45,628 nucleotides of DNA from assembly GCA_024698065.1 (NCBI GenBank), contig JAILRR010000056.1, positions 1-45,628 of the forward strand, written 5' to 3'. The notes under the pieces were generated by a model. The model was given only the letters and a program-made list of their open reading frames with translations. It made no database searches and was not told where the DNA came from. This document shows, piece after piece, positions 86-20,060 of the stretch. The translations under genes were made by a program, and so were the position numbers. Within the stretch, counting starts at the first letter, position 1, and the number at the start of each line of letters is the position of its first letter. The DNA is from Bacilli bacterium (GTDB lineage Bacteria > Bacillota_I > Bacilli_A > RFN20 > CAG-826).

Positions 86-90
86 TTTAT

Positions 91-164: not shown

Positions 165-180
165 CCTAATGGATAAAGCA

Positions 181-259: not shown

Positions 260-877
260 ATGAAAGTTCTTATTATCAATGGAAGCCCACGCCTTAACGG
301 CAATTCATCAAAGCTTACAGATGAGCTTATTGGCATCTTTGATAAAGAAGGCGTTGAAGTTGATCTTTATCAAATCGGGGCAAAAGCGATAAGAGGATGC
401 ATGGCGTGCGGATATTGCCACGAGCATGGCGAATGCGTTTTCAAAGATGATGTGAATGATCTCAGCAAGAGATTTGAAAATGAGGATGGCCTTATCGTCA
501 TCTCCCCTGTTTATTATGGCTCAGCGAATGGATCGGTTATCTCTTTGCTAGACAGACTATTCTACAGTTCGCATTTTGATAAGCGCTTCAAAGTCGGTGC
601 GGCCTTTGCCATCGCAAGAAGAGCAGGCACCACCGCAACATTTGATGAATTGAATAAGTATTTCACCATTAGCCAAATGCCAATTGCCTCTGGAAGATAT
701 TGGAACAATGGCTTTGGAAGGGAGCAAGGCCAAATCGAAAAGGATGAAGAAGGTCTTCAAAACGCTAGAGTGGTTGCAAGGAACATGGTCTTCCTCATGA
801 AAGCGGTCAAAGATGCGAAGGAAAAATACGGACTTCCAGAAATGGAAGAAACGAAGTTCACCCATTTCATCAAATAA
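260..877 (+). CDS. Flavodoxin-fold NAD(P)H-dependent FMN reductase / iron-sulfur flavoprotein-like protein
   Basis: 205-aa ORF with RBS-like AAAGGGG upstream. N-terminal MKVLIINGSPR..GNS is typical of the FMN_red/flavodoxin_2 fold. A Cys cluster CMACGYCHEHGEC resembles the iron-sulfur flavoprotein type. Confidence 0.8.
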   Translation: MKVLIINGSPRLNGNSSKLTDELIGIFDKEGVEVDLYQIGAKAIRGCMACGYCHEHGECVFKDDVNDLSKRFENEDGLIVISPVYYGSANGSVISLLDRLFYSSHFDKRFKVGAAFAIARRAGTTATFDELNKYFTISQMPIASGRYWNNGFGREQGQIEKDEEGLQNARVVARNMVFLMKAVKDAKEKYGLPEMEETKFTHFIK

Positions 878-892
878 TCGGAGATTCTGTTT

Positions 893-1405
893 ATGAAAGC
901 ACTAGTGATTTATTTTTCAAGGGCAGACGAGAATTATTTCGGCGGATCGATGAAGTACATCGAAAAAGGAAACACCGAGGTCGTTGCAGAATTTATTCGC
1001 GAAATAACTGGAGCAGAGCTCTTTAAGGTCGAGAGAAAGGTCCCATATTCAAAGGATTACATGACTTGCATCAAGGAAGCCCAGGACGAACAAAAAAGGA
1101 ACGAATTGCCTGAACTTGCCAAAGAACTAACTGATATCAATGACTATGACACCATATTCATTGGAGGCCCAATTTATTGGGGGACTTTGCCTCAGCCGAT
1201 GTTCACTCAGTTATCCAAGTTAGATTTCAAAGAGAAAACAATCATGCCTTTTTCCACCCACGAAGGAAGCGGTCTTGCCTCTATAGTGAGGGATATAAGA
1301 AAATTCGCCCCTACCGCCAATATTAAACCGGGTTTGGCCATTGTCGGTTCGAACGTGAATTCCTCCAAGCCATCATTAAAGAGATGGATTGACGAGCAAT
1401 TATAA
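893..1405 (+). CDS. Flavodoxin family protein
   Basis: 170-aa ORF lying 15 nt after the previous gene, with RBS GGAGA. Motifs ALVIYFSRADENY and YDTIFIGGPIYWGTLP...PFSTHEGSG resemble the flavodoxin-like domain of the 44177..45097 protein. Confidence 0.8.
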   Translation: MKALVIYFSRADENYFGGSMKYIEKGNTEVVAEFIREITGAELFKVERKVPYSKDYMTCIKEAQDEQKRNELPELAKELTDINDYDTIFIGGPIYWGTLPQPMFTQLSKLDFKEKTIMPFSTHEGSGLASIVRDIRKFAPTANIKPGLAIVGSNVNSSKPSLKRWIDEQL

Positions 1406-1422
1406 AACATTCCATTTGACCG

Positions 1423-1452
1423 AAAAGACCGGCTTAAAGTCGGTCTTTTTTT
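1423..1452 (+). terminator. Rho-independent terminator
   Basis: Stem AAAAGACCG/CGGTCTTTT with a 9-nt loop, followed by a T-run. Confidence 0.75.
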
Positions 1453-1499
1453 GGCTGGACATATTGCTTTTTTCTTTTTGCTTAGAGTAACCTTTATTC

Positions 1500-2621
1500 G
1501 TGAGCAATATGTCTAAGCTCTTCCGCACAAGGAAGAAGAAAATCTATTCTTTGGATGACGAACTCTTTTTCGAAGCGATGAAAGAGAATTGCCTTTTCCA
1601 TTACAAAAACAACGCCGAATATAAGAAAATCCTCGACAATTTCCACTTCGATCCAAACTCTTTGAAATCATATGACGACTTGGCAAATATCCCGTTTTTG
1701 CCAACGCTTTATTTCAAACACCATAACCTTTTGTCGCTCCCTAAGCGCAAATACCTCATCAAGGCCACTTCTAGCGGAACAAGCGGCAAAAACGTCTCTC
1801 TAGTCGGCTTCACCTTAGGTGATTTGCTCCGTGGCTGGAACATGGTTAAGAGCGTTTTCGCCTATCACAAGCTCTGGTCGCTTAGGCCTCACCGCTATAT
1901 CGTCTTTGGATATGAGCCACACAAAGGAAACGATAAGGCTATCGCCAAGACCGCTTATGGGTTCACTTTAGTCACCCCTGCCATCAGTAAGGACTATGCA
2001 ATCAGATGGACAAAAGACGGCTATAAGGTTGACCTTGATAATCTCGAGAAGAAATTCATCAAATATTCCAAAGGCAAAACTCCAGTCAGAACACTTGGCT
2101 TCCCTGCCTACACCTACTTCTTGCTCCAACAGATGAAAGACAAAGGCATCAGACTCAAGATGCCTAAAGGTTCAATCATCTCTTTGGGAGGAGGATGGAA
2201 ATCCTTCTATAAAGAAAAGGTCGACAAAGAGTCCTTCTATAAGCTTGTCGAGGAGGTTCTTGGAATCGATGACAAACATGTCTTTGAATTCTTTGGGGCG
2301 GTCGAACACCCAATCCTCTACACCGATTGCCGAAACCACCACTTCCACATACCGAATTACGCTCGCGTAATCATCCGTGACATCGAGACTTTAGAGCCAG
2401 TGAAACCAGGCCAGGTCGGTTTGATTAACCTCTTAACTCCTATGATGGTTGGCACTCCATTATTAAGTGTCATGACCGATGACCTTGGTATCCTTCATGA
2501 GGAGACATGCCCATGTGGCGAGAAATCAATGTATCTTGAAATCCTCGGTCGCAGCGGACTTGACGACATCAAGACCTGCGCTGCCGGGGCCGAAGAGCTT
2601 TTGAAAGGAGAGAAATCATGA
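1500..2621 (+). CDS. LuxE-family acyl-protein synthetase (adenylate-forming)
   Basis: 373-aa ORF with the ANL-type P-loop motif TSSGTSGK. Length and N-terminal region resemble LuxE-family proteins. The track start at 1500 is GTG; an ATG at 1509 is an alternative. The stop overlaps the next start (ATGA). Confidence 0.8.
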   Translation: MSNMSKLFRTRKKKIYSLDDELFFEAMKENCLFHYKNNAEYKKILDNFHFDPNSLKSYDDLANIPFLPTLYFKHHNLLSLPKRKYLIKATSSGTSGKNVSLVGFTLGDLLRGWNMVKSVFAYHKLWSLRPHRYIVFGYEPHKGNDKAIAKTAYGFTLVTPAISKDYAIRWTKDGYKVDLDNLEKKFIKYSKGKTPVRTLGFPAYTYFLLQQMKDKGIRLKMPKGSIISLGGGWKSFYKEKVDKESFYKLVEEVLGIDDKHVFEFFGAVEHPILYTDCRNHHFHIPNYARVIIRDIETLEPVKPGQVGLINLLTPMMVGTPLLSVMTDDLGILHEETCPCGEKSMYLEILGRSGLDDIKTCAAGAEELLKGEKS

Positions 2622-3886
2622 TCCTTTATAAAGGCGAAGTCTACGAAAACAAAGAACAAGAAAGACTAATCTCCTCTTTGAAGGAGGATATGCTTTCGAC
2701 GTTAGAGAAAAACGAAACCCTTTCCTATAAAGCGGTTATCGATGCCTGCGACAAACTCTACCAAAGGGTCATGAACCATGAGTTTGACCATATCGTTTTG
2801 CCTCTTCTTGATATGGTGAACATGCCATATTCCCAATTTGAGAGATACGCCAAATACTTCTCAAAAGAGGGATTGCTCAAGAAGATCGAGTATGAGCTTG
2901 GTGACCTTAAAAACGGGAAACTAGAGCTCGATGAGGATAACGAAAGATATTACGAACCACTAGGCATTTTGTTCCATATTGCAGCCGGAAACGTCGACCT
3001 TTTGCCTGCTTATAGCGTGGTTGAGGGCCTTCTTGTCGGCAACATCAACATCCTCAAACTCCCTACCGGAGACAATGGAATGTCGATCATGCTCCTTCAG
3101 GAACTCATCAAAGAGTCTCCGATTCTCAAAGACTACATTTACGTCTTTGACGTACCTAGCACCGAAATCGAGACCATTAAGGAACTCGCAAATATGGCTG
3201 ACGCCACAATCGTCTGGGGCGGGGATATGGCCCAAAAGGCCGCAAGGACCTTTGTCGACATCCACTCCTCCATCATCTCCTGGGGACATAAGATCTCCTT
3301 CAGCTACGTCGATGAGAATGTAACCGACGAAGAACTCAAGGCTCTTTGCGAATCCGTATGTGCGACCAACCAGCTCTTCTGTTCTTCTTGCCAAGGCATC
3401 TATCTCAATACAGATAATGTCGATGATTTAAAGAAGCTAGCGAACCGCCTTCTCCCAATCTTTGCCAAAGTGAGCAAAGAGATGGGCACATTGCCTCTTA
3501 CGATGAAAGCGAAGAACACCCTCCTCACCTATAACGAAAAGCTTGAAGGGAATATGGATAAGGTTTTCACGAAAGATGGCGTTTCCATTCTCATCAAGGA
3601 AGATAACACTCTAGAGCTCTCTTACCTTTTTCAAAACCTGTGGATCAAACCTCTTAAGAAGAGCGATATCGTCAAAGTCCTTAAGCCAAACAAGAACCTC
3701 TTGCAGACTGTCTCGATCAATAGAGGCCTAAAAGAAAAAGAAGAGATAATTAGTCTCCTCGCCAAATCAGGACTGACAAGGATAACCGCTCTTGGCGACA
3801 ATTCACGAATGCTTCCAGGCGAAAGCCATGATGGGGAATACGCTTTAAGGCGTTATATCAGAATCGTTGAATCAATTAAAGGCTGA
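2618..3886 (+). CDS. LuxC-family acyl-CoA (fatty acyl) reductase
   Basis: 422-aa ORF. HIAAGNVDLLPAYSVVEGLLVGNINILKLP matches the LuxC/aldehyde-dehydrogenase-like core. A candidate catalytic Cys lies in NQLFCSSCQG. There is a 4-nt ATGA overlap with the LuxE-like gene. Confidence 0.8.
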   Translation: MILYKGEVYENKEQERLISSLKEDMLSTLEKNETLSYKAVIDACDKLYQRVMNHEFDHIVLPLLDMVNMPYSQFERYAKYFSKEGLLKKIEYELGDLKNGKLELDEDNERYYEPLGILFHIAAGNVDLLPAYSVVEGLLVGNINILKLPTGDNGMSIMLLQELIKESPILKDYIYVFDVPSTEIETIKELANMADATIVWGGDMAQKAARTFVDIHSSIISWGHKISFSYVDENVTDEELKALCESVCATNQLFCSSCQGIYLNTDNVDDLKKLANRLLPIFAKVSKEMGTLPLTMKAKNTLLTYNEKLEGNMDKVFTKDGVSILIKEDNTLELSYLFQNLWIKPLKKSDIVKVLKPNKNLLQTVSINRGLKEKEEIISLLAKSGLTRITALGDNSRMLPGESHDGEYALRRYIRIVESIKG

Positions 3887-4048
3887 TTTGTCAGTCCTTT
3901 TTTCTTTTTTGCGAACGTTTTTTATGATGAACAAAAAATATATAATTCACTGGGTGTGAATCAGAAAAAGGTCGACGAACCCTGCATCTAATAGTTTTCT
4001 TGAACAGTTTTGGTTCTTTAAATCGTCATATTGGTAGGAGAAAAAGAA

Positions 4049-4936
4049 ATGAAGCACAAATTGATTCCCTTATTCCCATTGGTATTCGTCATGGCTGCTT
4101 GTTCTTTTCCTGTGACTAAAACCGCAAAAGGAGGCGCCAGAACACACACCATCAATGCGAACATCGCCCCACGTTTCGAATGTTTTGATGAAGTTGCCTA
4201 CTTAGCCTACGCAATAGACCATTTGCCAGAAGAACCAGCGGAAGAAACCTCCGAAGAGCCTTCAGAAGTGCCTGCGACACTAGAAGATTCTCTTTCTTCC
4301 TCAAATGAGGAGATGGAGCAGTCAAGCACCGCTGGAACAACATCCATAAAACCAAAGCTCAGCCAAGAATCCTCCTCCCAGAGCGAGGAAGAGGAAGATC
4401 CTTACGCGCCATATTATGACGAAAGCGACCGACTCCACTATCCAATCGAAATTAAGAGCAAATACACTTTCAGCGACTTCACATACTTCGCTCTTTTAGC
4501 CGATGAGTGCCCATTCCTTGAAGAAAGAATCGGATGTGGCAATGTTGAGGGTTTGATTGTCAAAACAGACATCTTTGACGAGATGATGATCGTTTTAAAA
4601 AACGAAGATCGTTACTTCTCTTGCTTCACCAACGGTTACTCTTCCAATTTCCACCAATTCACTTACGATTTTAGTTGCCACAAATATCTTGAAGGCTTCG
4701 ATTTGGTGAAGGACGATAACAAAAAACACATCGAAGTCACTTTTGAGGAAGAACCGGAAAAACGAAGCTGGGACCGAGGAGACTTTTCGGAGTTTAACCT
4801 AACGAAAATCGATTTTGACGGGGTTAGCTTCCAAATCGAAAGAGAGAACACTTCGCGCGACGCTGAAGAAAAAGAAATCTCCGTTAACGAATTAAGAAAA
4901 TTCTTTGGCCTCGAGCCCGACCCGAGGTTCGAGTAA
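4049..4936 (+). CDS. Lipoprotein of unknown function, with an acidic Ser/Glu-rich linker
   Basis: ATG at 4049 is preceded by GGAGAAAAAG; the track start at 4031 is TTG. The signal peptide ends in the lipobox VMAAC. I recognise no domain. Confidence 0.75.
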   Translation: MKHKLIPLFPLVFVMAACSFPVTKTAKGGARTHTINANIAPRFECFDEVAYLAYAIDHLPEEPAEETSEEPSEVPATLEDSLSSSNEEMEQSSTAGTTSIKPKLSQESSSQSEEEEDPYAPYYDESDRLHYPIEIKSKYTFSDFTYFALLADECPFLEERIGCGNVEGLIVKTDIFDEMMIVLKNEDRYFSCFTNGYSSNFHQFTYDFSCHKYLEGFDLVKDDNKKHIEVTFEEEPEKRSWDRGDFSEFNLTKIDFDGVSFQIERENTSRDAEEKEISVNELRKFFGLEPDPRFE

Positions 4937-5050
4937 AAAAGTCGTTTGCCGACTAAAAGTAAAAGAGAGGCTTCAAGATTGCTCTTTTTTCTTTCAAAAG
5001 ATTGCTTTTTCGAGGAAAATCATATTTGTTTCCCTAAAAAGGAGAGAATC

Positions 5051-6001
5051 ATGAAACTCAAAACATTTTCGCTATTCTTTATCGGTATCTTTGCATCCGC
5101 CACGCTTTTAGGGGGATGCGATGGCCTCATTTCCTTCGCTAACGGACCAAAGGCAGCCACAGAAAAAGAAGTGATTTATGAGAAAGAGCTCACCTCTTCA
5201 ACCGGAAAATGGTTCCTTTTGGATGAGAGCAAAAAAGCAACAAATACTTTCTTCGAATTCGATGGCAGCTTAGAGGCGATGACTTTCAAATACACCGAAG
5301 AAGGTGAAGAAAAGTTTTCTGGCAAGTATCAGGTTGCATACCGCGAAAACACCGGCGAAAACGGTTCCACTTTGACTTGGATGCTGTTGAAAGATGGCTC
5401 AGAGAAAGTCGATTGGGTTTATTGCTACGCAGATAATTTCGATTCCAAGGATTTTGCTCAGTTCACTACCATCAAAGAAGAAAGGGATGAAGGTAAGAAC
5501 GACGGAAGGAACTACGCCCACATCTATAGGATCAGTGAGCTCCCATACAAGATGGGGACTTATGTCCTTGAAGGGAAAGAGTTCAGAGAAGAAAAAGACA
5601 ATTATCGGTACAAGAGCCACTACCAAATTCCAGACGGGAAATACTCTTTGGACGAAGAAACCTACTTCACTTTCCTCATGCCAAAGCCATATTCATACGC
5701 ATTGTTCCATTATCAAAACGGTGATGAGTCAGTCGAAGGCGTTTATTGGACGGCGGATGACAAAAAGACAATCTATCTCTTTATTGAGCACGACCCATAT
5801 CAATACGTCAGGACCGAGGACAGAAACAGCTATGACATGACCTTCTCTCATGACTATCCACCGGATTTCTATCTAAGAGGCAGTTTCGATGTCTCTGGGC
5901 AGAGCCAAAAAATAGCTATCAATGACCTATATCACCATGACTATAGCCCTACCTCTATCAAAGACTCGACTTGGAAATTTGGCACCTACAACAAGCAATA
6001 A
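5051..6001 (+). CDS. Lipoprotein of unknown function
   Basis: ATG at 5051 is preceded by AAAAAGGAGAG. The signal MKLKTFSLFFIGIFASATLLGGC has a lipobox. The track ORF extends upstream to 4946, but that extension lacks an RBS and a signal peptide. Confidence 0.75.
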   Translation: MKLKTFSLFFIGIFASATLLGGCDGLISFANGPKAATEKEVIYEKELTSSTGKWFLLDESKKATNTFFEFDGSLEAMTFKYTEEGEEKFSGKYQVAYRENTGENGSTLTWMLLKDGSEKVDWVYCYADNFDSKDFAQFTTIKEERDEGKNDGRNYAHIYRISELPYKMGTYVLEGKEFREEKDNYRYKSHYQIPDGKYSLDEETYFTFLMPKPYSYALFHYQNGDESVEGVYWTADDKKTIYLFIEHDPYQYVRTEDRNSYDMTFSHDYPPDFYLRGSFDVSGQSQKIAINDLYHHDYSPTSIKDSTWKFGTYNKQ

Positions 6002-7431: not shown

Positions 7432-7665
7432 TTATTTGGCAAGCTTCTTTTCGATCGAAGCAAGAAGATCGCCGACGGTCTTGAACTCAGCGAGTTCTTC
7501 TGGGCTGAATTCGATGCCATACTTGTCTTCTAAATCAAGACACATCTCAACAACATCGAGACTATCGAGTCCGAAGTCTTTGAGGGATTTGGCCTCGTCG
7601 ATTTTTTCAACTTTCATTCTTTCGCAAAATAACTTGCGGATTTCAATCATTTGGTCTGCGCTCAT
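7432..7665 (-). CDS. Acyl carrier protein (apparently monocistronic)
   Basis: 77 aa, with the phosphopantetheine attachment motif GLDSLD. The ATG at 7665 lies 6 nt after GAGGTG. The track start at 7674 is GTG and sits inside that RBS. Confidence 0.85.
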   Translation of the reverse strand: MSADQMIEIRKLFCERMKVEKIDEAKSLKDFGLDSLDVVEMCLDLEDKYGIEFSPEELAEFKTVGDLLASIEKKLAK

Positions 7666-7688
7666 AAAATGCACCTCACAATGTGCCT

Positions 7689-7731: not shown

Positions 7732-7911
7732 TTAGAGGGACACTACTGCATTCGGATTTGCATACTTGACGCTGCCATTTACTTCGACCGTGATGTTCTT
7801 GTTGACGGCTTCAGCACTGGCGGCGAAGGCTGGAATTAAGATTCCAAGAATCGTCCCAAAAGCGGCCAAAACAAGGATCATTCCGAGAAGCTGTCCTTTG
7901 AGTTCCGACAT
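7732..7911 (-). CDS. Small pilin-like protein (59 aa) with a class III (prepilin-type) signal; absent from the supplied ORF track
   Basis: My own translation of the minus strand gives MSELKGQLLGMILVLAAFGTILGILIPAFAASAEAVNKNITVEVNGSVKYANPNAVVSL. A strong RBS GGAGGTGG lies 5 nt upstream of the ATG. The short charged leader ends in KG and is followed by a hydrophobic stretch of about 25 aa. It is the last gene of the Tad-like operon. Confidence 0.7.
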   Translation of the reverse strand: MSELKGQLLGMILVLAAFGTILGILIPAFAASAEAVNKNITVEVNGSVKYANPNAVVSL

Positions 7912-7927
7912 AAATCCACCTCCTTTC

Positions 7928-8269
7928 TTATTCTAGGTAACCGACCATAACGCCTCTCATAACCTCGAGGCTCATCACCTCTTTTGAGATTATGATTGGC
8001 TCGTATTTGCGGGCGATGACGAATTCAAAGATGTCACCTATGACTGCGTATTCCTTACTGACCGGGTAAATGTAAGCCTGAGCTCTGTCAAAGACGTACC
8101 TTTTGGTTTTTTCGCTGATTCCGCCTTCTAGGGAAATAAGATGCCCCGCTGTCACGGAAACCGTGTCTAAAATGCTATAGATTTGCTGAATGACGGTAAG
8201 ATCCCCAACATAGGCCATGACCTGGACCGAGAAAAATAAAGACAAAAGAAAACCTAAACTAGATCCCAT
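7928..8269 (-). CDS. Membrane-anchored protein of unknown function (possible minor pilin or assembly factor)
   Basis: 113 aa counted from the ATG at 8269; the track start at 8275 is TTG. It has an N-terminal hydrophobic segment LGFLLSLFFSVQVMAYV and overlaps the end of the upstream gene by 11 nt. Confidence 0.6.
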   Translation of the reverse strand: MGSSLGFLLSLFFSVQVMAYVGDLTVIQQIYSILDTVSVTAGHLISLEGGISEKTKRYVFDRAQAYIYPVSKEYAVIGDIFEFVIARKYEPIIISKEVMSLEVMRGVMVGYLE

Positions 8270-8948
8270 ATGCAAGATTCCCCATGATTACGACGATTGC
8301 GACGACGATTAAGCCCATCGTCAAGGCACTGTCAGCTAGCGGCAAGAAATTGTTGTTATTGAGTGTGCTTTCGAATTTGCTGATTTGGTATTTCCTCTTT
8401 TCGGCCGCAACGGAAGAGAAGACGCTTTCGAATTGCTGAATGTATGTTGATGAACCCCCTTCATTCCCCATTTTGTAGATGCTGATCATGACTTGCCTGA
8501 TCTCAAGACTACGGAAATTAGTTGAAAACGTGAGATATGGCTTAACGCTCTTGTCGGCATCGATGTCCTTTAGTAGAGTCGTCAAAAGATCGCTCATCGC
8601 CGGGGATGAATAACGGACACAGTCCTCGAGGGCGTTATAAACCGGCCTTCCATTCGTAACGAAAATCTTGAAATAAGAGAAAACGTGAACAAATTCTTTC
8701 TCAAGTTCTTCGACCCTCATCTTCTTCACCCTAGAAGCTTTTCCTAGGAGGAAGAAATCGGAGACCGCAATCAGGAGGATTATGGATAACGGGGCGATTA
8801 ATGCTTCGCTCATCCTATAGGCGAAAAAAGCCATGACGAGGAGAGAGATATTCGTCATCACTATGAAGGCGATTTCCTTCTTTGGATTCAATCCCGATTC
8901 TTTTAAAGCTACGGACCAGGATTTCTTCACTTTCTTGTTCTTTTTCAT
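8259..8948 (-). CDS. TadC/TadB-like T2SS-F-domain inner membrane platform protein
   Basis: 229 aa. It has N- and C-terminal TM segments flanking a helical cytoplasmic domain, as in GspF/TadB/TadC family proteins. The start lies 1 nt after the upstream stop, with RBS GAAAGGA. Confidence 0.65.
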   Translation of the reverse strand: MKKNKKVKKSWSVALKESGLNPKKEIAFIVMTNISLLVMAFFAYRMSEALIAPLSIILLIAVSDFFLLGKASRVKKMRVEELEKEFVHVFSYFKIFVTNGRPVYNALEDCVRYSSPAMSDLLTTLLKDIDADKSVKPYLTFSTNFRSLEIRQVMISIYKMGNEGGSSTYIQQFESVFSSVAAEKRKYQISKFESTLNNNNFLPLADSALTMGLIVVAIVVIMGNLAYGI

Positions 8949-8949
8949 G

Positions 8950-9648
8950 TCATTTCCTTTCTAGACTTATCTTCTCGCCTGTATATGCCCTTGCGTAAAC
9001 GTAGAAGGACACGATGGCGATCAAGAAATAGGCGATTGAGGTGAGGAGGTATGGGATGTTCTTCGTCAAAGAGTCGTAGAAGTTAGATAGGCCAAAGCGC
9101 AAGAAGACGAGAACAATCGTACTAAGAAACCACAAGGAGCCATACTGCACGAGCGATTTCTTTCTGATGGTTTCAAGGGAGTTATGTTTCTCTTCATTTG
9201 AAGTTACCTCGTTAAGCAATTGCGAGGACATCTCAAGAAGGTCGCCCCCTTCTTCCAAATAGGCTTTAACGATTGATAAGAAGACTGGGTAAATATCATC
9301 CTCGAAATACCTTAACAGGTATTCGATTTTTTCCATGCTCGTCAGCGCGCTTATCGAATCAAGGACCTCTTTTTCTTCTCCTTTTGCGTCGATGGTGGCA
9401 TCTTCAAAGGCTTGATCAATGGACGACGTGATGGAAAGCGAGATGATGAAATGGTTGATGAAGTTAAATACTTCATGACGTTTCCTCCTTTTATCGAGAT
9501 ATCTTTTAACAAGTGGTTTTATGAAGAGGATCGAAATAGCGAAGTAGATAAGGAAAACAGATCCTCCGATCAAAAGGTTGCTTGTCGTCACGTAGGCGAC
9601 GATGGCGAAATACAAAGAAGGCACAAACAAGAATAAAAAGCCTTTCAT
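8950..9648 (-). CDS. TadB/TadC-like T2SS-F-domain inner membrane platform protein
   Basis: 232 aa with the same architecture as the neighbouring paralog. It has an ATGA overlap with the ATPase gene. Confidence 0.65.
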   Translation of the reverse strand: MKGFLFLFVPSLYFAIVAYVTTSNLLIGGSVFLIYFAISILFIKPLVKRYLDKRRKRHEVFNFINHFIISLSITSSIDQAFEDATIDAKGEEKEVLDSISALTSMEKIEYLLRYFEDDIYPVFLSIVKAYLEEGGDLLEMSSQLLNEVTSNEEKHNSLETIRKKSLVQYGSLWFLSTIVLVFLRFGLSNFYDSLTKNIPYLLTSIAYFLIAIVSFYVYARAYTGEKISLERK

Positions 9649-10607
9649 GATTCCTTCCCCCTTTCATAAATGACAGACATCTTTTTGCTCGTTTCGTCTA
9701 GATGCCCGATTGCTTTGACATATCGCTTGATCGAACCGTTTTTTGCTATCTCTTTTTCGACATAAACGTAATAACGGAGATGCCTTGAAATATCTCCCAT
9801 AAGCTCATCTTTGAAGAGCCTTTTGTTGCCAGTCATAGCAAGTCTAGCGACACGGTCAGGCATCGCGTTCAGGTTCTCGGCATGAACGGTCGTGATAATG
9901 GGGTGGCCACTCATGGCACTGACGAGAGCGTCGAGCATCTCTTCGCCTCGAGCTTCCGCAATGACGATGTAATCCGGATCGTTCCTCAAAGCGTTTTTGA
10001 TGAGGTCTGAAAAGGACGCTCCTTTGCCTTGCTCGCTCACGAGCCACGTCGTCAGATCGATGTTTTCGTTTTCGACCATATCAAGCTCTTCGACGTCATC
10101 AATAACGATGACCCTTGTGCACGGAGCCATGTTTTGAAGAAGCCATTTCTGGAGTTCTGTTTTGCCGCTAGAGACCTTTCCTCCGATGATAATCGATTCT
10201 CCTTTTTTGATTAATTGATTGAGGATTTGCAGCGATTTTTTGTCAAAGAAGGAAGATTTGCTGGTGATTTTGCAATCGCTGCTTTCTAAACGCAAAGAGA
10301 AAGTGAAGGCCTTCTCATTCTTTCTTCTCGCTAATGACGAATTGACTGCGTTCATGCGGTATCTCCCAAAGCTGATATTGAGAATCGGGGATTGAACGCT
10401 GAACTGATGCTCAGTGAGATTTGCCAATTGTCTAAGGAAAGACGAGACATCTTCCTTCTTCGCTTCTATGCCCGCTCTTTGCCTTCCTTTCTCATTGGAT
10501 ACATAGAAGAGATCCTTCCCGTTATAGGAGATGTCAGTTACCCCTTCTATGTTGAGTAAAGGCGAAAGGAAAGAACTCTCCAAAAAGGTTACTGGATTGC
10601 CACTCAT
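9645..10607 (-). CDS. TadA/CpaF/VirB11-family secretion ATPase
   Basis: 320 aa. Walker A GGKVSSGKTE; Walker B/Asp box VIVIDDVEELD. The block RNDPDYIVIAEARGEEMLDALVSAMSGHPIITTVHA is typical of T2SS-E/CpaF ATPases. ATGA overlaps occur on both sides. Confidence 0.85.
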   Translation of the reverse strand: MSGNPVTFLESSFLSPLLNIEGVTDISYNGKDLFYVSNEKGRQRAGIEAKKEDVSSFLRQLANLTEHQFSVQSPILNISFGRYRMNAVNSSLARRKNEKAFTFSLRLESSDCKITSKSSFFDKKSLQILNQLIKKGESIIIGGKVSSGKTELQKWLLQNMAPCTRVIVIDDVEELDMVENENIDLTTWLVSEQGKGASFSDLIKNALRNDPDYIVIAEARGEEMLDALVSAMSGHPIITTVHAENLNAMPDRVARLAMTGNKRLFKDELMGDISRHLRYYVYVEKEIAKNGSIKRYVKAIGHLDETSKKMSVIYERGKES

Positions 10608-10987
10608 ATAGCTTTGCCCTCCCTAATCTCAAATGCCTTGCAGTCTTGATATCTGAAGGTTTTGTTGAACCGGCAATCCAAAGTGACCACCGCCTTAGAC
10701 TCGGGACCACTCTTCTTGCCTTTGTAATCAAAGAATTCGAGATTGACTTCCCATTCGTCAACTCGGTATCTCATAAAGCTTTCAGTAAAGTATTTCCTGG
10801 CGATGTAATAAAAGAGTTTCGGTTCAAAATGAGGCGGACCACCATAGATATCCATCACCACCGCATTCTGGGCAAAGGTGAAGTCAAAAGCGGTGAATGT
10901 GTTGATGATTCCATTGCATGTATACGAATACGAATAGACAGATAACGAAAGGACGAACACCGCGGCAAAAAGAAGAAAATTAAGCAT
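10604..10987 (-). CDS. Membrane-anchored protein of unknown function (pilus operon)
   Basis: 127 aa with an N-terminal TM segment FLLFAAVFVLSLSVY. RBS GGAGGT lies 8 nt upstream. It overlaps both neighbouring genes. Confidence 0.6.
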   Translation of the reverse strand: MLNFLLFAAVFVLSLSVYSYSYTCNGIINTFTAFDFTFAQNAVVMDIYGGPPHFEPKLFYYIARKYFTESFMRYRVDEWEVNLEFFDYKGKKSGPESKAVVTLDCRFNKTFRYQDCKAFEIREGKAI

Positions 10988-12116
10988 CCACTTTTACCTC
11001 CGTGACATAGTAACGGCTATTGATCTTTGACCCAATTTCATTCGAATAACGGAGGGCCGTGAATGAATACTTCAGCATATCTGTATTCATGACGCCGATG
11101 CCCTCTAGGATGATTTGGCAGTCGTAAAATCTCGCCTTTGTACCTTTTACGGGCGGCATGATAACGCTCGTACTGTATGTATAGCCTTGGGTTTCAGGAT
11201 GATAATCATTTGTCTGGTAACGCCCATCCAATTTCGTATAGAGGAACTTTTTGGAACGAAGATATGATTCTTTTCCCTTTGGGACAAGCTCCAAAGGAAC
11301 TCCGATGTACGGCCTTTTGAGCTCATCGACTTTCCTTGTTCCAATATGGAAATCATCAAGGTAGTTATAGAAACGGAGCTCGCCCTTCTTCATTGTCAGA
11401 GGGCTCCATGAATGATCGAATTCTTCAAAGAAGAAATGCATGTCCTCAAGAGGCAAAAACCCTTGCGAATCTAGCACATATTCGTCCTCAAGCCCTTTGA
11501 AATTGATGCAGGTGTAACTTGTGGTCCCCAAAAGCAATTTGCCCCAGTAACGCCCCGCGAAAGCCTTTGGGTTCGTAAAAGAATGATGCACATCAGTGAT
11601 GCAATTTGGAGAGAGGTAACCATATTCGACTTTGACCGTATAAGACTCGACCGTTTCCGGCGCGACCAGAACCCTTATGTCTATAGTAAGGTGTTGTTCA
11701 ATATCCCCTACTTCTAACTGTGAATAAGGGACTTCGATATTGAAATCGATCGTCTGGCCTTTCCTATATGATTGGAAGTCAAAACGGCTATCGATCCAAT
11801 CTATCTCCGGTCGGGCGTTGTGGTATAAAAGAGACGTTCGCTTACCGTTTTCATCGGTGTAGGTGTGATCCACTTCGACACAGAATGCGACGTCCGCATC
11901 TTTGAGCATGTGCATGTGAAGCGTCGTTCTGCGGTCTTGTTGGTCGTTAGGCAACCACACGAAATCATCGAGATAGCATGTTTCGGTTATTGTGTCGAAG
12001 CAGTAGTATTTGAAATCCCACGCCGATGTCAATAAAGGTGTTAAAAGACCAAGAGTCAGCAAAAGGGTTTTTATCTTTAACCCATGAGGTAGGCGAATTT
12101 TGTTTTTAGTTTCCAC
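10980..12116 (-). CDS. Secreted or membrane-anchored protein of unknown function (pilus operon)
   Basis: 378 aa with a GTG start preceded by AAAGGAGGAAG. The N-terminal hydrophobic segment is LLLTLGLLTPLLTSA. I recognise no domain. Confidence 0.6.
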   Translation of the reverse strand: METKNKIRLPHGLKIKTLLLTLGLLTPLLTSAWDFKYYCFDTITETCYLDDFVWLPNDQQDRRTTLHMHMLKDADVAFCVEVDHTYTDENGKRTSLLYHNARPEIDWIDSRFDFQSYRKGQTIDFNIEVPYSQLEVGDIEQHLTIDIRVLVAPETVESYTVKVEYGYLSPNCITDVHHSFTNPKAFAGRYWGKLLLGTTSYTCINFKGLEDEYVLDSQGFLPLEDMHFFFEEFDHSWSPLTMKKGELRFYNYLDDFHIGTRKVDELKRPYIGVPLELVPKGKESYLRSKKFLYTKLDGRYQTNDYHPETQGYTYSTSVIMPPVKGTKARFYDCQIILEGIGVMNTDMLKYSFTALRYSNEIGSKINSRYYVTEVKVDA

Positions 12117-12430
12117 TGCAACTTCCTCCTTTCTTGCTCATAGAATTCTTTGTTCCCATAACGCATCCACCAGAAACGGTAGTTCTTCCCTCTCTCAAGA
12201 TAGTCGTTCACGAATATAAGTCCCTGAACGAATGTCAGTTTCTTGAAAAACTCATTCGCCTTAAGGAGAAAAGAGGCCTCTTTACGAGGCATGCGGAACC
12301 TTAGGTAAGAGGTATTGAGATCATACACATGCGTGTTTGATGGAAGTCCGCTTTGGGAGAGCGAGAATGAATATTCCTTGGTGATCATTTCCTCTTCGGT
12401 TTTGCTTAATCGGCATCTGTCTTCTTTCAT
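12077..12430 (-). CDS. Basic cytoplasmic protein of unknown function (first gene of the pilus operon)
   Basis: The ATG at 12430 lies 8 nt after GAGGG; the track start at 12445 is GTG. 117 aa, no TM segment, Lys/Arg-rich C-terminus. Confidence 0.5.
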   Translation of the reverse strand: MKEDRCRLSKTEEEMITKEYSFSLSQSGLPSNTHVYDLNTSYLRFRMPRKEASFLLKANEFFKKLTFVQGLIFVNDYLERGKNYRFWWMRYGNKEFYEQERRKLQWKLKTKFAYLMG

Positions 12431-15571: not shown

Positions 15572-17329
15572 TTATTCGTCGTCGTCTTCAGCATCACCGC
15601 TATTATCGTTAACATAGTTAACAAGATCGGCGGCATAGTCGCGAGTGTCGACGGAGGCTCCGTAAGTCAATCCGGCTTTGCCGCAGACATCATCGATGAG
15701 CTGCTTGGCACGTTTGACGGAAAGTCCACTTCTGACCTTGAAGCAAAGAGGAATGTCTTTGTAGAGGTTCTTGTGGCCAACGTCCTGGACTGGGATTGGA
15801 GAATTCTCGTAATCCTTCGGATCGAGGGCGTAATAGAGCTTAAGTCCTTTTCCGACCATGTTGATACGGAAGTAGGTCTTGGTGTGGAGACGGAATGTGT
15901 CACCACCATTGGCAACACGGCTCTTAAGGCCATAGCCGAAGGCATAGGCTTTGAGGTCGTTATAGTTGTCTTTGACTTCTTTTGTGGCACCAGTCATCTT
16001 CTCAGCGAAGGAGAGACGGATAACAGGCTCTTTAGCTTCTTCCGGTTCTGGCTCAGGCTGTGGCTCTGGCTCTGGTTCCGGTTGAGGCTCTGGCTCTGGT
16101 TCCGTTTGAGGCTCTGGCTCAGGCTCTGGCTCAGGTTGAGGTTCCACTTCTTCAACAACAGCGATGTTCTGAAGGTATTTGGCAAGTTCCTCGGCGATGA
16201 TGGTACGGACCTCGTCGGCGGAGAGGCTTTCTTTTTCCTCTTTTGGAGCGCCGAGCTCTTCGCGGATGATTTCACGGATCTCATCTTTTGTGAGAGAAGT
16301 TCCGTCAGAAGGTTTCACAAGGCCTTCGACCTCTTCTTTGATCATCTTTCTGAGGTCATCGGCAGTCATGACATCGGAATCGCCTTCTTCGGTTTCTTCT
16401 TTTCCGTAATAAGCGGCGATTTCTTCCTGGATGACTTCACGGGCTCTCTCATCACTGAGAGGCTCATTCTCTTCTGGGTGTTCACGCTCATCAAGCTCTT
16501 CGCGGATGATTTCGCGGAGCTCCCTAGCAGTGAGAGGCCTTTCTTCTTCGCACTCACATTCGTGTTCGTGGCAATGGCATTGGCAACCGTCGTTGTTTGG
16601 CATCGGGGCGCCATTGTAGAAATTCTGGATGATTGTCGGGGTAGCGTCGTCTTCGTATTCGTCGAATTCGACCTTTTCTTGATTCTTTTCTTCAATCATT
16701 TTTTCTTCCTCCATTTCTTCCTCTTGTTCAGGAAGTTCTTCATAGGTGTAAGAATCTTCAAGAGGCGCGCTCTCACGTCTCCTTAAAAGAAGCGATGTTG
16801 ATTTGACGATGGCAACAAGACCGAGGATGTAGCCAAGAGCGAGGACAACAACGATGGCAATGGCCAAGATAGCGGCAACGATCTCGCCACCAATAAAGGC
16901 AGGCATGACCATTCCGAAGATATCGTGGAAGTTTTGCTCACCGATAATTCCTTCGAAGATTAAGCCTTTTCCGTTAACAGGAATAACGGAAAGAGCAAAT
17001 AAGATGACAGCCAGTCCACCAGCTAAAAGCCAGATGAGATTTGGAACCAACTGACCAAACTTCTTTTTTGCAATAAGAAGCACAAGGTTGATGATCCATA
17101 AAACGGCAACGATCGCTAAGGCAACAACAATCGTTATGTCAAAGATCGGATTGATAAAAGCAAACGTAGCGCCCAAAACGGTGAAAGTTTCGCCAAGGGC
17201 AGCGACCAAATCTTTGCCTGCTAAAGCAGGTACCATTGAAGGGATCATAAAGCAAATCGCAGCGCCAGCAGCAACGAGGATGAGTGAAAGCACTGCAAAG
17301 ATGAAAATTGAAGCTTTTGATTTTCTCAT
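15572..17329 (-). CDS. Membrane protein with an acidic repeat region, a Cys/His cluster and a conserved-looking C-terminal domain; function unknown
   Basis: 585 aa. The first roughly 190 residues hold about 5 TM segments. Then come an acidic region, CQCHCHEHECECEE, and five copies of the motif L[ST]xDE[IV]RxIIxEEL. A (PEPEPQ)n tract follows, then a C-terminal globular domain of about 150 aa. Confidence 0.75.
   Translation of the reverse strand: MRKSKASIFIFAVLSLILVAAGAAICFMIPSMVPALAGKDLVAALGETFTVLGATFAFINPIFDITIVVALAIVAVLWIINLVLLIAKKKFGQLVPNLIWLLAGGLAVILFALSVIPVNGKGLIFEGIIGEQNFHDIFGMVMPAFIGGEIVAAILAIAIVVVLALGYILGLVAIVKSTSLLLRRRESAPLEDSYTYEELPEQEEEMEEEKMIEEKNQEKVEFDEYEDDATPTIIQNFYNGAPMPNNDGCQCHCHEHECECEEERPLTARELREIIREELDEREHPEENEPLSDERAREVIQEEIAAYYGKEETEEGDSDVMTADDLRKMIKEEVEGLVKPSDGTSLTKDEIREIIREELGAPKEEKESLSADEVRTIIAEELAKYLQNIAVVEEVEPQPEPEPEPEPQTEPEPEPQPEPEPEPQPEPEPEEAKEPVIRLSFAEKMTGATKEVKDNYNDLKAYAFGYGLKSRVANGGDTFRLHTKTYFRINMVGKGLKLYYALDPKDYENSPIPVQDVGHKNLYKDIPLCFKVRSGLSVKRAKQLIDDVCGKAGLTYGASVDTRDYAADLVNYVNDNSGDAEDDDE
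16041..16145. repeat. In-frame tandem GGCTC(T/A)GG(C/T)TC-type repeats encoding (PEPEPEPQ)n
   Basis: Visible imperfect tandem repeats. The 24-nt-scale units GGCTCTGGCTCTGGTTCCGGTTGA, GGCTCTGGCTCTGGTTCCGTTTGA and so on translate on the minus strand to PQPEPEPEPEPQTEPEPEPQPEPEPEPQPEPEPE. Confidence 0.85.
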
Positions 17330-17423: not shown

Positions 17424-18296
17424 TTAGTGACTATTTGCATAGATTTTTATGGCTTTTGGACACACTTCGACAACAGCTTCTCCAGCAGGTCCTTTCTCGC
17501 CATCTAGGCACCAAAACTCTGTTTTTGGAACCGTTATTTCGCACTTCTTTATCAATAAAGGTTCGATGTTTTTGAAGGGAACGTAATGCAAAAGGCCATT
17601 GAAAGGCCCTTCTTCTGTGAGGTAGAGTTCAAATTCTCCATCATCATATGAACATTCTTTGTTGATTTTGAATCCAGCCATATGCGTTCCATTTAGGAAC
17701 ATGATGAAAGGCGAAGCCCCTGAGACTTCCTTACTCCCATCAACTTTTGCCGTGTATTTTATGAGTTTTTTCTTAAATGCCTCCCCTACTGCTTTCTCAT
17801 AATATGCGAGTTTTCCAACCCTTCTTTTCTTTCTTCTTTCTACGACATATGGGATATCGCTATACGCACCTATGGAACACGTGTATGCGAAATAATAGGT
17901 CTTTTGATCCTGCGTTAATTTGCCTACGTCGATTTCTTTTATATTCTGGTCAACGATTATCTCTACATCTTTTTTGAAATCGTTCTTTAATCCAAAAGCT
18001 TTACCAACATCACCAACCGTGCCAAAGTTGAGATATCCAACCATCGGCTTATTCTCAAGGCCCATCAAAGAGTTGAGTGCGTTGTTGAAAGTGCCATCTC
18101 CCCCGATGACAATAAGGGAATCGTAGTCATTTCCTTTTTGGATAATGAGCCTTCTCGCTTCCTCTTTCGAAAGAGTACATACAGGATCAAGAGTTTCGAA
18201 AACAGTAGCTAACCTATGTAAAACATAGCTGAGTTTGTTCGCGAAACCTTTTTTATTCGCTCCCGTGTTATGGGAATAGATTAGTAAAGCCTTCAT
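17424..18296 (-). CDS. Diacylglycerol kinase-family lipid kinase (DagK/YegS-like)
   Basis: 290 aa. It carries the DAGK catalytic-domain signature SLIVIGGDGTFNNALNSL and has the typical length. Confidence 0.8.
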   Translation of the reverse strand: MKALLIYSHNTGANKKGFANKLSYVLHRLATVFETLDPVCTLSKEEARRLIIQKGNDYDSLIVIGGDGTFNNALNSLMGLENKPMVGYLNFGTVGDVGKAFGLKNDFKKDVEIIVDQNIKEIDVGKLTQDQKTYYFAYTCSIGAYSDIPYVVERRKKRRVGKLAYYEKAVGEAFKKKLIKYTAKVDGSKEVSGASPFIMFLNGTHMAGFKINKECSYDDGEFELYLTEEGPFNGLLHYVPFKNIEPLLIKKCEITVPKTEFWCLDGEKGPAGEAVVEVCPKAIKIYANSH

Positions 18297-18337
18297 TACA
18301 AAAACTATAGCATAACCTGCTTCTTTTTGAATTGAGA

Positions 18338-18366
18338 CAAAAGAAAAGGACCCAATTGGGGTCCTT
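18338..18366 (-). terminator. Rho-independent terminator
   Basis: Minus strand hairpin GGACCC-(caatt)-GGGTCC, followed by TTTTCTTTT. Confidence 0.7.
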
Positions 18367-18380
18367 AACTGTTTGATTCT

Positions 18381-20060
18381 CTATTTGAGAGCGAAGATGA
18401 GAGGATAGATGGTCTGATTGCCCTGAATCTCAATCATCTCAAGACTTGGGAAGTCTTTCTTCACAAGGTTTTGGAGATCCTCTTTCATCTTATCGTTGGC
18501 ATCCTGGCCATAGAAGATGGTGAAGACGGATTTCTCTTCGATCTCTGGAACTTTATTGAGGAGTTCTTTGATGGTTTCCATCATATCAGGCGAAGATGAG
18601 ACGATATTGTGTTTGAGGATGCCCATGTAGTCACCCTTCTTGATCTCAATGCCGTTATTAAGGGAATCACGGACAGCTGGAGAGATTTCAGCAGAGATAA
18701 CACCCTCCATCGATTCGATCATACTGTCGATGCACTCTTGGACATCTTGACCATCGAAGCAAGCCATCGAAAGAGCGCTATAAGCTTCCACCACACTCTT
18801 AGAGTGAAGAACATGGACTCTGCTCTTGTCGTAAAGCTTTCCGGCTTGTTCAGCGGTAAGGATGATATTGCTGTTATTTGGGAAGACGATGATGTCGTCG
18901 GCGTTAGCGGCATCGAAGGCTTTGATGAAGTCGTCGGCGCTTGGGTTCATGGTCTGTCCGCCAGAGACAATCTGGTTGGCACCCATGTTGAGGAAGAGCT
19001 CGGTGATGCTGCTAGATGGGGAAACGGCAACGATTTGGACTGGTTGACGCTTCACGTTTGGCACGATGTGCTCAGTTGGCTTTTCTTCTTCGATTGGCAT
19101 CTCTTTGAGAAGCTTTTCGTTATGCTGAATGGACATGTTCTCCATCTTGAAGGTGACGAATTCGCCAAACTTCTGAGCGTATTGGATGGCTTTCCATGGC
19201 TCTTTGGTGTGAACGTGGACTTTGACGATGCTCTTTTGTTTTAGGGCAACGATGGAATCGCCAATGCCTTCCAAGAAATGGATCATCTCTTTGAGATCGA
19301 AGGCCTTTGGGTCACATTTTGAGACGAGAAGCTGAAGAATGAATTCGGTGCAATAGCCATAATCGAGGACGGAATTCTCATCGAATGGGATTTTCTCATC
19401 GGTAGCTACACCGTTGGTTGGGCCATTGAATTCAGCATCAGCGACTTCTTCGCCGACAACGTATTTGCCCATGCCTTCCATGATGTAGACAAGCCCAGCT
19501 CCACCGCTATCGATGACGCCAGCCTCTTTGAGGACTGGAAGAAGGTCTGGGGTTCTATCAAGAGAAAGTCTCATCTCACGGAGAAGGTTTTCGAATAAGG
19601 TCTCGAAATCTTTGATGTGAGAAAGGTTGTCCATGATATAGACGGTCGATTCACGGGCTACGGTAAGGACAGTGCCTTCGACTGGGTGAACGACGGCTTC
19701 ATAGGCTTTTGAGGTTCCGCTTCTAAGAGCGCTAGCAAACTGTGTGACGTTGGCGGTTTCAAGGCTGCTAAGTGCTTCTGAAATGCCTTGGAAGAACTGG
19801 CTGATGATGACGCCAGAGTTTCCACGGGCACCTAAAAGCATGCCGCCAGCAAGTTTTTCGGCCACATCTCCGATGGAATCAAAGTTGGCGTCTTTCATGG
19901 CGTTGACGCCACCTGTGAGGGTGGCAGCGATGTTGGTTCCGGTGTCACCATCTGGGACGGGGAACACGTTGAGGTCATTGATTTTCTCGTAATGATTCTT
20001 GAGGTCACGATAACCATTAAGAACCATCTCCGAGAAGATTTTTCCGGTAATAGTCTTCAT
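18381..20060 (-). CDS. fakA: DAK2-domain protein, FakA/YloV-like (candidate fatty acid kinase ATP-binding subunit)
   Basis: 559 aa. The N-terminal Dak2 motif is FPVPDGDTGTNIAATL. Length and three-part architecture match YloV/FakA. It lies directly downstream of a DegV (FakB-type) gene. No Shine-Dalgarno sequence is visible upstream. Confidence 0.75.
   Translation of the reverse strand: MKTITGKIFSEMVLNGYRDLKNHYEKINDLNVFPVPDGDTGTNIAATLTGGVNAMKDANFDSIGDVAEKLAGGMLLGARGNSGVIISQFFQGISEALSSLETANVTQFASALRSGTSKAYEAVVHPVEGTVLTVARESTVYIMDNLSHIKDFETLFENLLREMRLSLDRTPDLLPVLKEAGVIDSGGAGLVYIMEGMGKYVVGEEVADAEFNGPTNGVATDEKIPFDENSVLDYGYCTEFILQLLVSKCDPKAFDLKEMIHFLEGIGDSIVALKQKSIVKVHVHTKEPWKAIQYAQKFGEFVTFKMENMSIQHNEKLLKEMPIEEEKPTEHIVPNVKRQPVQIVAVSPSSSITELFLNMGANQIVSGGQTMNPSADDFIKAFDAANADDIIVFPNNSNIILTAEQAGKLYDKSRVHVLHSKSVVEAYSALSMACFDGQDVQECIDSMIESMEGVISAEISPAVRDSLNNGIEIKKGDYMGILKHNIVSSSPDMMETIKELLNKVPEIEEKSVFTIFYGQDANDKMKEDLQNLVKKDFPSLEMIEIQGNQTIYPLIFALK

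Follow-up and report, generated by a model that had tools for sequence, protein, structure and literature searches.

A compact operon of a gut and rumen Bacilli lineage including RFN20 probably encodes a minimal, divergent Tad/archaeal-like type IV filament machine

In the competence (ComG) system, ComGB combines two domains in one protein, and Glu5, a residue needed for pilin assembly, is present in ComGC. Archaeal pilins have leaders of the K-G|Q type and often lack Glu5. Most bacterial type IV pilins carry Glu5, and Gram-positive tad loci have been reported with Flp-like pilins that lack Tyr6 or without a recognizable pilin (PMC3244431). In the present study, we analyzed a 45,628-nucleotide (nt) stretch of DNA from a Bacilli bacterium (GenBank assembly GCA_024698065.1, contig JAILRR010000056.1, positions 1 to 45,628; hereafter the window), in which eight consecutive, co-oriented open reading frames (ORFs) on the minus strand, g1 to g8, lie between gmk (guanylate kinase) and acpP. 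This operon probably encodes a minimal, divergent, and chromosomally fixed type IV filament machine of a Tad/archaeal-like kind in a Bacilli lineage of the gut and rumen to which RFN20 belongs. The kind of system is known, monoderm Tad-like loci being documented; what is new is the set of divergent, mostly sub-threshold families, the pilin lacking both Glu5 and the Flp motif, the fixation of the operon in an uncultured lineage related to the Mycoplasmatales, and the link to 'VirB11' modules of conjugative plasmids.

The eight genes span positions 12430 to 7732, and the ORF listing recovered the same minus-strand genes that a preliminary description of the region, made from the sequence before any database search, had proposed. 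That description had also put every junction at 16 nt or less. This holds for the two ATGA overlaps (10607-10604 and 9648-9645), for the overlap of 8 nt at 10987-10980, and for the gap of 16 nt between g7 and g8, and g5 and g6 are 1 nt apart while g6 and g7 overlap by 11 nt; however, g1 and g2 overlap by 40 nt because g2 most plausibly starts at the GTG at 12116, 8 nt upstream of which lies AGGAGG. The last gene, g8, has its own strong ribosome-binding site (AAGGAGG), and acpP, downstream of the operon, has its own TATAAT. Rfam and tRNA scans gave no match inside the operon, and a scan for promoters and terminators returned scattered consensus matches only (promoter-like, 1 observed vs. 8.4 expected; terminator-like, 7 vs. 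5.0 expected). The eight-gene operon is confirmed as real, strongly conserved, and translationally coupled. The characterization of the lineage as low-GC and rich in lipoproteins did not hold up: the window is not markedly low in GC, since its GC content is 0.40-0.48, and the orthologues of g2 carry, by eye, a Sec-type signal without a clear lipobox.

Regarding the conservation of the operon, a search with the ATPase encoded by g4 returned 748 homologues, and the few named ones are called CpaF/VirB11 or TadA and come from uncultured Bacilli, Erysipelotrichaceae, or Mollicutes. One genome per GTDB species was scanned, which confirmed 326 relatives, and the locus counts given here cover the best 80 of these 326. 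Every one of the 80 loci comes from a gut, rumen, or faecal metagenome-assembled genome (MAG), the closest ones being from rumen MAGs, and the set includes Ca. Enteromonas and Ca. Alloenteromonas, the former of which has been placed in the order RFN20, family CAG-826 (PMC8035907). By tblastn, g4 was matched in 80 loci, g5 in 79, g6 in 77, g7 in 74, and g8 in 64, while the fast-evolving upstream genes were matched in 48 (g1), 25 (g2), and 32 (g3); when ORFs were called by position, g2 was found in 69 and g3 in 77 of the 80. The order of the tblastn-matched genes never varied, and the arrangement gmk (divergent), g1 to g8, and acpP was found almost everywhere, at ATPase identities down to 45% (gmk flank in 68/80, acpP flank in 71/80). 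Because the locus always lies between gmk and acpP over this range of identity, it appears to be vertically inherited and chromosomal, and not an island. A mobile-element or phage origin was also considered, and was ruled out by the housekeeping flanks at their fixed position. In MAG RGIG6528, the operon occurs on two contigs (L004 and L005), each with an ATPase approximately 81% identical to that of the window, for which a strain mixture or a duplicated locus is possible. Several further loci (L008, L012, L015, L016, L018, L028, and others) have the operon and the gmk/acpP synteny yet are titled Escherichia coli, Prevotella sp., Bacteroides uniformis, Alistipes, Faecalibacterium prausnitzii, and so on; these labels look wrong.

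The product of the fourth gene, g4 (10607..9645, minus strand; 320 amino acids (aa)), matches Pfam PF00437 (T2SSE) with an E-value of 7.3e-21 and 74.7 bits against a cut-off of 24.9. Its motif columns G142-E151, D170/E173/E174, P211-E223, and S233-A243, corresponding to Walker A, the Asp-box, Walker B, and the His-box, are invariant in 16 sequences. On these motifs, g4 is an intact secretion ATPase of the VirB11/FlaI/CpaF supergroup and the predicted motor of the system, and its earlier description as a short ATPase of the CpaF/VirB11 type without the N-terminal extension of CpaF is upheld. Among all the NCBIfam models scored, g4 passed no curated cut-off. The best were the TadA family TIGR03819 (113.6 bits vs. 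a cut-off of 373) and VirB11 TIGR02788 (107 vs. 249.95), followed by TrbB (73 bits), FlaI (69), ComGA (68.2, cut-off 300), PilT (41), GspE (30), and PilB (27). A g4 profile compared with the PDB matched VirB11 (1.7e-22) and archaeal GspE (3.8e-22), then FlaI (2e-18) and CpaF (1e-16), and PilB, PilT, and GspE far more weakly. The protein is the size of Gram-negative VirB11, which is its second-best NCBIfam model, but it falls below the cut-off of that model and no VirB genes lie nearby. With ComG, the operon shares the monoderm context, but differs in the low ComGA score, in a platform split over two genes, and in a candidate pilin, g8, without Glu5.

A tblastn search with the ATPase against plasmids returned full-length matches of approximately 30% identity (E 1e-15 to 1e-29) to 'CpaF/VirB11 family' genes on conjugative plasmids of the B. 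cereus group, Listeria, Enterococcus, and Lactococcus. Rhizobium TadA/CpaF ranked below these (E 1e-7 to 1e-5, 72-82% coverage), as did proteobacterial VirB11 and TrbB, in which the C-terminal half alone aligned. Bit scores of a hidden Markov model (HMM) of the g4 family followed the same direction: 159-200 for the plasmid modules, 133 for Gram-positive CpaF, 103 for Rhizobium CpaF/TadA, 90 for VirB11, 83 for TrbB, and 38 for GspE. In a rough neighbor-joining tree (311 columns, GspE outgroup, 100 bootstraps, small sampling, bacterial sequences without archaeal ones), the MAG clade was monophyletic (100/100) and sister to the Gram-positive plasmid ATPases (100/100), and the two together fell inside CpaF/TadA in 0/100 bootstraps and never inside VirB11/TrbB.

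The next two genes, g5 (9648..8950, minus strand; 232 aa) and g6 (8948..8259, minus strand; 229 aa), encode polytopic membrane proteins, the putative platform subunits A (TadB/TadC-like) and B (TadC/FlaJ-like). Both products have hydrophobic segments at both ends with a soluble domain between them (approximately 120 aa in g5), and they are paralogues (hhalign 85%, E 6e-6). Among 37 g6 orthologues, 8 matched Pfam T2SSF at an E-value of 0.1 or better (best 6.6e-5), and the g6 HMM recovered the TadC encoded in a canonical Tad locus of B. paranthracis (22.8 bits, 7e-8) and a B. thuringiensis plasmid protein annotated as FlaJ (59.7 bits, 4e-19). The g5 HMM matched plasmid platform proteins (8.6e-8 and 1.4e-6) and Rhizobium TadC (0.0019), and an hhalign comparison of the g6 family with the single sequence of E. 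coli GspF was not significant. At the level of family profiles, g5 and g6 are thus predicted homologues of bona fide TadB/TadC/FlaJ platform proteins, and their paralogy, the TadC match, and the order g4-g5-g6 with its ATGA coupling bear out two single-domain proteins of approximately 230 aa, as had been proposed.

Homologues of g4 to g7 were found on pAW63/pXO2 and on Listeria and Enterococcus plasmids, using family HMMs in all cases except pAW63, for which the published gene table was used. The grouping of these plasmid genes as a 'VirB11 module' is informal, was defined in this analysis, and does not correspond to a curated family. In Listeria, E. faecium, pXO2, and pAW63, the module has the same order as the window: an anchored protein of approximately 120 aa, the ATPase, platform A, platform B, and a g7 homologue of approximately 118 aa, and the g7 HMM matched genes at this position on Listeria, Bacillus, and Enterococcus plasmids (2.8e-6 to 4.6e-5). 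On pAW63, where the module comprises CDS23-18, the genes from the ATPase onward are CDS22 ('VirB11'), CDS21 (278 aa), CDS20 (250 aa), CDS19 (121 aa), and CDS18 (84 aa), and genes of pAW63 also match Listeria pLIS21 (PMC1196294). B. thuringiensis p133753 (L081) also has the homologues, but they lie scattered around VirD4, and the g7 homologue of this plasmid starts with MGELKG|FILSL. As judged by the clade of its ATPase and by platform A, platform B, and g7 in the same order, the operon of the window belongs with these modules. It differs from them in that the plasmid modules lie among VirD4, VirB4, and TrbC/VirB2 genes, none of which the window has, and in the length of the ATPase (372-471 aa on plasmids vs. 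320 aa). On pXO2 of B. anthracis (L090, 7038-7899), the first platform gene is missing from the gene table and its single-frame translation contains several stops, and it may be a pseudogene.

Because the plasmid 'VirB11' is accompanied by partners that resemble TadB/C and pilins, Gram-positive conjugation systems may contain a type IV filament module; a literature search found no published description of such a module in Gram-positive conjugation or of the function of the plasmid module. The same relationship can be read in the opposite direction, with the operon as a domesticated or leftover piece of conjugation machinery, i.e., the 'VirB11 module' of a pAW63/pXO2/pLM80-type element, which serves DNA transfer together with type IV secretion system (T4SS) genes elsewhere. 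The sister position of the ATPases in the tree and the g5-g7 homologues standing in the same order beside VirD4, VirB4, and TrbC/VirB2 would fit this origin. However, a locus that keeps its place between gmk and acpP down to 45% ATPase identity speaks for vertical chromosomal inheritance, the scanned ORFs of the window and the surroundings of the operon yielded no relaxase, VirB4, VirD4, integrase, or repeat boundary, and HMMs detected no counterpart of g1, g2, g3, or g8 on the plasmids, so that we regard a conjugative origin of this kind as improbable. The preliminary description had named a firm clustering of the ATPase and platform genes with ComG or with VirB11/T4SS as one result that would speak against its reading. 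The present result touches on this point, as the nearest relatives are annotated VirB11 and lie in Gram-positive T4SS regions, but it does not place the operon in conjugation, because the plasmid modules also hold TadB/C-like and pilin-like genes and the window has no T4SS gene.

The last gene of the operon, g8 (7911..7732, minus strand; 59 aa), is the candidate major pilin. Its 60 unique orthologues are 47-65 aa long and start with M-S-E-[LIF]-K-[G/A]-[Q/T/S]-L-L-x-[M/I], after which comes a hydrophobic helix. The lysine at position 5 never varies, position 6 is occupied by G in 54 sequences and by A in the other 6, and the residue at +1 is Q, T, or S. In the window, the leader is MSELKG, with a putative cut between G6 and Q7, a 22-aa hydrophobic helix (residues 8-26 are the hydrophobic segment of the family), and a short variable tail. 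As a sequence pattern, this leader is a candidate class III signal, and the pilin-like gene that had been proposed here is upheld by the class III-like leader and hydrophobic helix across the 60 orthologues. The putative mature N-terminus, QLLGM, does not have the Flp motif G/xxxxEY and has neither E5 nor Y6, and an acidic residue occurs within the first 22 mature residues in 1 of the 60 sequences. Among 36 g8 sequences, one matched the archaeal Pilin_N model, weakly (0.068), and the g8 profile had no meaningful match in the PDB. When E. coli GspG was used as a phmmer query over 1.25 Mb of ORFs, the sole matches were the g8 orthologues of three loci (L009, L019, and L020; E 0.013-0.07), which may be a faint echo of a type IV pilin N-terminus.

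Directly upstream, g7 (8269..7928, minus strand) encodes 113 aa from an ATG or 115 aa from a TTG at 8275. It had been described as an anchored protein, a view that now gives way to a pilin-like architecture with a 6-residue leader, a 47-residue N-terminal helix, and a small sheet, for which a structural match is lacking. The leader has the form M-x-x-K-[LI]-[G/S/A] and is followed by F/L-I/L-L-S-L, with K at -3 in 57/71 sequences and G, S, or A at -1 in 69/71. An AlphaFold2 model built from 91 sequences (mean predicted local distance difference test score (pLDDT) 95.9, predicted TM-score 0.82) consists of a helix at residues 2-48, a second helix at 53-63, and a three-stranded sheet, and g7 is accordingly modeled as a candidate minor pilin or pseudopilin. 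Six of the 91 family members weakly matched Pfam TadF (best E 0.019) and three matched DUF4320, the g7 HMM did not match Rhizobium TadE proteins, and profile comparisons of g7 with g3 (hhalign E 0.0026, probability 12%) and of g7 with g8 were too weak for them to be called paralogues.

Compared with the Tad/Flp (type IVc) systems, the operon shares one ATPase gene followed by two single-domain platform genes and then by pilin-like gene(s), a very small pilin (approximately 50 aa when mature), and pseudopilin-like genes, and, as in monoderm Tad loci such as that on the B. paranthracis plasmid (L087), it has no secretin. It differs in that TadZ/CpaE, CpaB/RcpC, and TadV are missing from the locus, and the g1 and g2 HMMs did not match B. 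paranthracis CpaB or TadZ. It differs further in a g8 without the Flp motif and Glu5, and in a g4 that lies below the TadA cut-off and outside CpaF/TadA in the neighbor-joining tree. The platform split in two and the short pilins recall archaeal Epd-like systems (PMC6668835). Other archaeal likenesses are the g4 profile, whose matches to archaeal GspE and FlaI are of about the same strength as that to VirB11, and the plasmid homologue of g6 that is annotated as FlaJ; neither a FlaH/KaiC-like second ATPase nor an EppA/FlaK peptidase was found. The earlier label of Tad/Epd-like therefore cannot be kept in the sense of classical membership, given the pilin without Flp motif or Glu5, the ATPase that fails the NCBIfam cut-offs, and its position outside CpaF/TadA in a rough tree. 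We also considered, as a doubtful possibility, that the operon of the window and the plasmid 'VirB11 modules' together form an unclassified branch of type IV filaments apart from Tad, Com, type IVa and type IVb pili, and the archaeal pili described to date, with a subunit of approximately 50 aa that lacks Glu5 and is matured without a locus-encoded A24 peptidase or is not matured at all.

The homology of g4 to g6, the leader patterns, the architecture of g7, and the synteny were tested, and several results weigh against a filament machine. The filament is a prediction from genes, and no part other than the ATPase (PF00437) reaches a curated family threshold. The product of g5 matches Pfam T2SSF below threshold (E 0.045, 14.2 bits vs. 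a cut-off of 25.2, positions 1-122 of 125), the g6 product of the window has no T2SSF match, and neither the g5 nor the g6 profile matched the PDB. Position +5 of g8 is M in 47 and I in 13 of the 60 sequences and never E or D, so that Glu5 is absent, and 36 g8 sequences gave no family match to Pfam pilin models including Flp_Fap (PF04964). The best Foldseek match of the g7 model in the PDB had an E-value of 0.9, and a sequence search of the PDB was not significant; as neither search gave a significant match, the 'pilin fold' of g7 is an architectural reading only. Pfam detected no A24 peptidase among 30 ORFs of the window, and none emerged when 1.25 Mb of sequence, made up of the window, the 80 related loci, and two plasmid loci, was searched by phmmer using GspO of E. 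coli and TadV of Rhizobium. Since no peptidase was found, cleavage of the g8 and g7 leaders is wholly inferred.

Several of these results would support a non-filament membrane transport or remodeling complex, composed of a VirB11-like ATPase, two membrane partners, and small membrane proteins, in which g8 would be an ordinary, uncleaved single-pass peptide: neither g8 nor g7 has a significant pilin-family match, no peptidase was found, Glu5 is missing, and T2SSF matches of g5 and g6 in the window stay below threshold. However, a secretion ATPase together with two paralogues related to TadC and two proteins that each show a short basic leader, a small residue, and a hydrophobic helix, all in the Tad order, is hard to explain otherwise, and a near-invariant MSE-x-K-G leader over a deep divergence implies recognition, which makes a complex of this kind highly improbable.

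Regarding maturation, the preliminary description had listed the operon as lacking a prepilin peptidase, a TadZ/ParA-type ATPase, and a secretin, and neither Pfam nor NCBIfam found such a domain in any of the eight products. It had also presented the missing peptidase as a point of interest; a locus without one is not unusual, as MSH pilus loci have been reported without a peptidase of their own (PMC6668835). Because the leaders of g8 and g7 are deeply conserved, something would be expected to recognize them, and a distal peptidase encoded elsewhere in the genome is our default assumption. On two plasmids, genes for intramembrane proteases of the CAAX/CPBP type lie within 5-6 kb of the module (L082, 13703-14353, Listeria; L085, 551-994, Enterococcus). 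Speculatively, such plasmid proteases could take over the processing; the window showed no gene of this type.

For a type IV filament machine, the following sequence of events may be proposed, in which cleavage, polymerization, the roles of g1 to g3, and the biological function are conjectural. A prepilin peptidase whose gene lies elsewhere in the genome would cleave off the leader of g8 (M-S-E-x-K-G/A) and that of g7 (6 residues). Hexameric g4 would dock on a membrane platform of the paralogues g5 and g6, and ATP hydrolysis would drive the extraction of g8 from the membrane and its polymerization through the hydrophobic N-terminal helix. The fibre would be primed or capped by g7 and possibly by the anchored g3, with g2 as a surface or adhesive accessory and g1 as a cytoplasmic regulator or adaptor. 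With a single ATPase, any retraction would require a bifunctional motor, as in CpaF. The most likely product is a thin type IV-like surface filament, and its role would likely be in attachment or in DNA uptake or exchange.

The same parts could also build a short pseudopilus or piston, similar to those of Com or type II secretion systems, that takes up DNA or exports a protein such as g2 and never forms a long pilus. The subunit is very short and no adhesin domain is obvious, the exported g2 is encoded in the operon, and the nearest relatives lie in DNA-transfer loci; in addition, DNA uptake systems are often retained by genome-reduced lineages (PMC12786226). On the other hand, the window contains no comEA, comEC, dprA, or nuclease gene, and the ATPase scores far below the ComGA and GspE models (68 and 30 bits). 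Nothing in the data separates a short from a long fibre, and we consider a short pseudopilus unlikely.

The three genes upstream of the ATPase were described as lacking recognizable motifs and as lineage-specific, and this description is consistent with the present results: g1 to g3 matched no family and had no detectable plasmid homologue. The first, g1 (12430..12077, minus strand), encodes 117 aa from an ATG or 122 aa from a GTG at 12445. Its product is soluble, without a hydrophobic segment, and the family alignment contains the conserved blocks YRQSL..G.SPD.HVYDL and IFV.D.LE.GRHY.FWW, with no match in Pfam, NCBIfam, or the PDB. It is probably cytoplasmic. A resemblance by eye to a helix-turn-helix of sigma-70 region 4 found no Pfam support in 28 members and was rejected; a role as a regulator or adaptor is a guess.

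The second gene, g2 (12116..10980, minus strand; 378 aa from a GTG start), evolves fast, with 11 close homologues recovered by homologue searches. The N-termini of its orthologues are basic and then hydrophobic, and end, by eye, in A-x-A-like sites. In an AlphaFold2 model from 12 close sequences (mean pLDDT 53.5), residues ~40-165 form a confident beta-sandwich, and Foldseek gave generic tandem beta-sandwich matches only, with TM-scores of 0.32 or less. Thus, the g2 product is predicted to be all-beta and to be exported by way of a Sec-type signal peptide, and may be a surface or adhesin-like accessory. Most of its orthologues end in N-x-F-G-x-C-x-N-S-x-Y-C-V, with two conserved cysteines, which the sub-clade of the window (IGSKINSRYYV, ~10980-11040) does not have. 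The third gene, g3 (10987..10604, minus strand; 127 aa), lies directly upstream of the ATPase gene and encodes a protein with an N-terminal membrane anchor (hydrophobic residues 1-19, no leader) and an outer domain of approximately 100 aa with a conserved PYF, for which no family or PDB match was found. Anchored proteins of a similar size are encoded at this position on plasmids (L082, 7332-7718; L085, 6165-6587; L090, 5331-5690).

In the rest of the window, 30 other ORFs were scanned with Pfam and are metabolic or without a family match; no T4SS, Com, integrase, or mobile-element domain was detected among them. The genes present include those for flavodoxins, LuxC/LuxE, a CitMHS permease, FakA/DegV/DAGK, a GH10 enzyme, an extracytoplasmic function (ECF) sigma factor, and MerR. 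Genes for tRNA-Asn(GTT) and tRNA-Glu(TTC) occupy 11-166 (plus strand), and two flavodoxin/FMN-reductase genes followed by homologues of LuxE (acyl-protein synthetase) and LuxC (acyl-CoA reductase) occupy 260-3886 (plus strand). A LuxE/LuxC pair of the fatty-aldehyde type is unexpected in anaerobic gut or rumen Bacilli. Lipid-handling genes stand around the operon, i.e., acpP and genes for a DAGK-like kinase, FakA, and DegV/FakB (7432-7674 and 17424-21006). A GH10 xylanase gene (34528-36204, minus strand; E 6.5e-66) would suit a fibre degrader from the rumen or gut. Pfam assigned no family to seven ORFs of 263-644 aa (15572-17329, 27843-29777, 37563-39206, 4031-6001, 32922-33713, and 39833-40780), and a 547-aa ORF overlaps the end of the ECF sigma factor gene at 39197-39700 and could encode an anti-sigma partner.

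Abundant in the gut and rumen, RFN20 and its relatives are uncultured Bacilli that lie near the Mycoplasmatales. The families CAG-826 and CAG-288 have been predicted to lack peptidoglycan, and RFN20 lacks sortases (PMC10868615), genome surveys of these orders leave pili and competence unmentioned (PMC7301438, PMC10868615), and PilFind was developed with Mollicutes as negative controls devoid of pili (PMC3244431); our literature search for RFN20 together with pili found no paper. If the operon and the plasmid modules do form an unclassified branch, it would provide the main surface fibre in RFN20 and, on plasmids, an unrecognized pilus component of Gram-positive conjugation. Moreover, a subunit that is 47-65 aa long and has no Glu5 offers a small system in which the requirements of pilin assembly can be tested. 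For the Bacilli themselves, a filament operon that is syntenic across the lineage would provide a concrete organelle for attachment or DNA exchange that can be put to the test.

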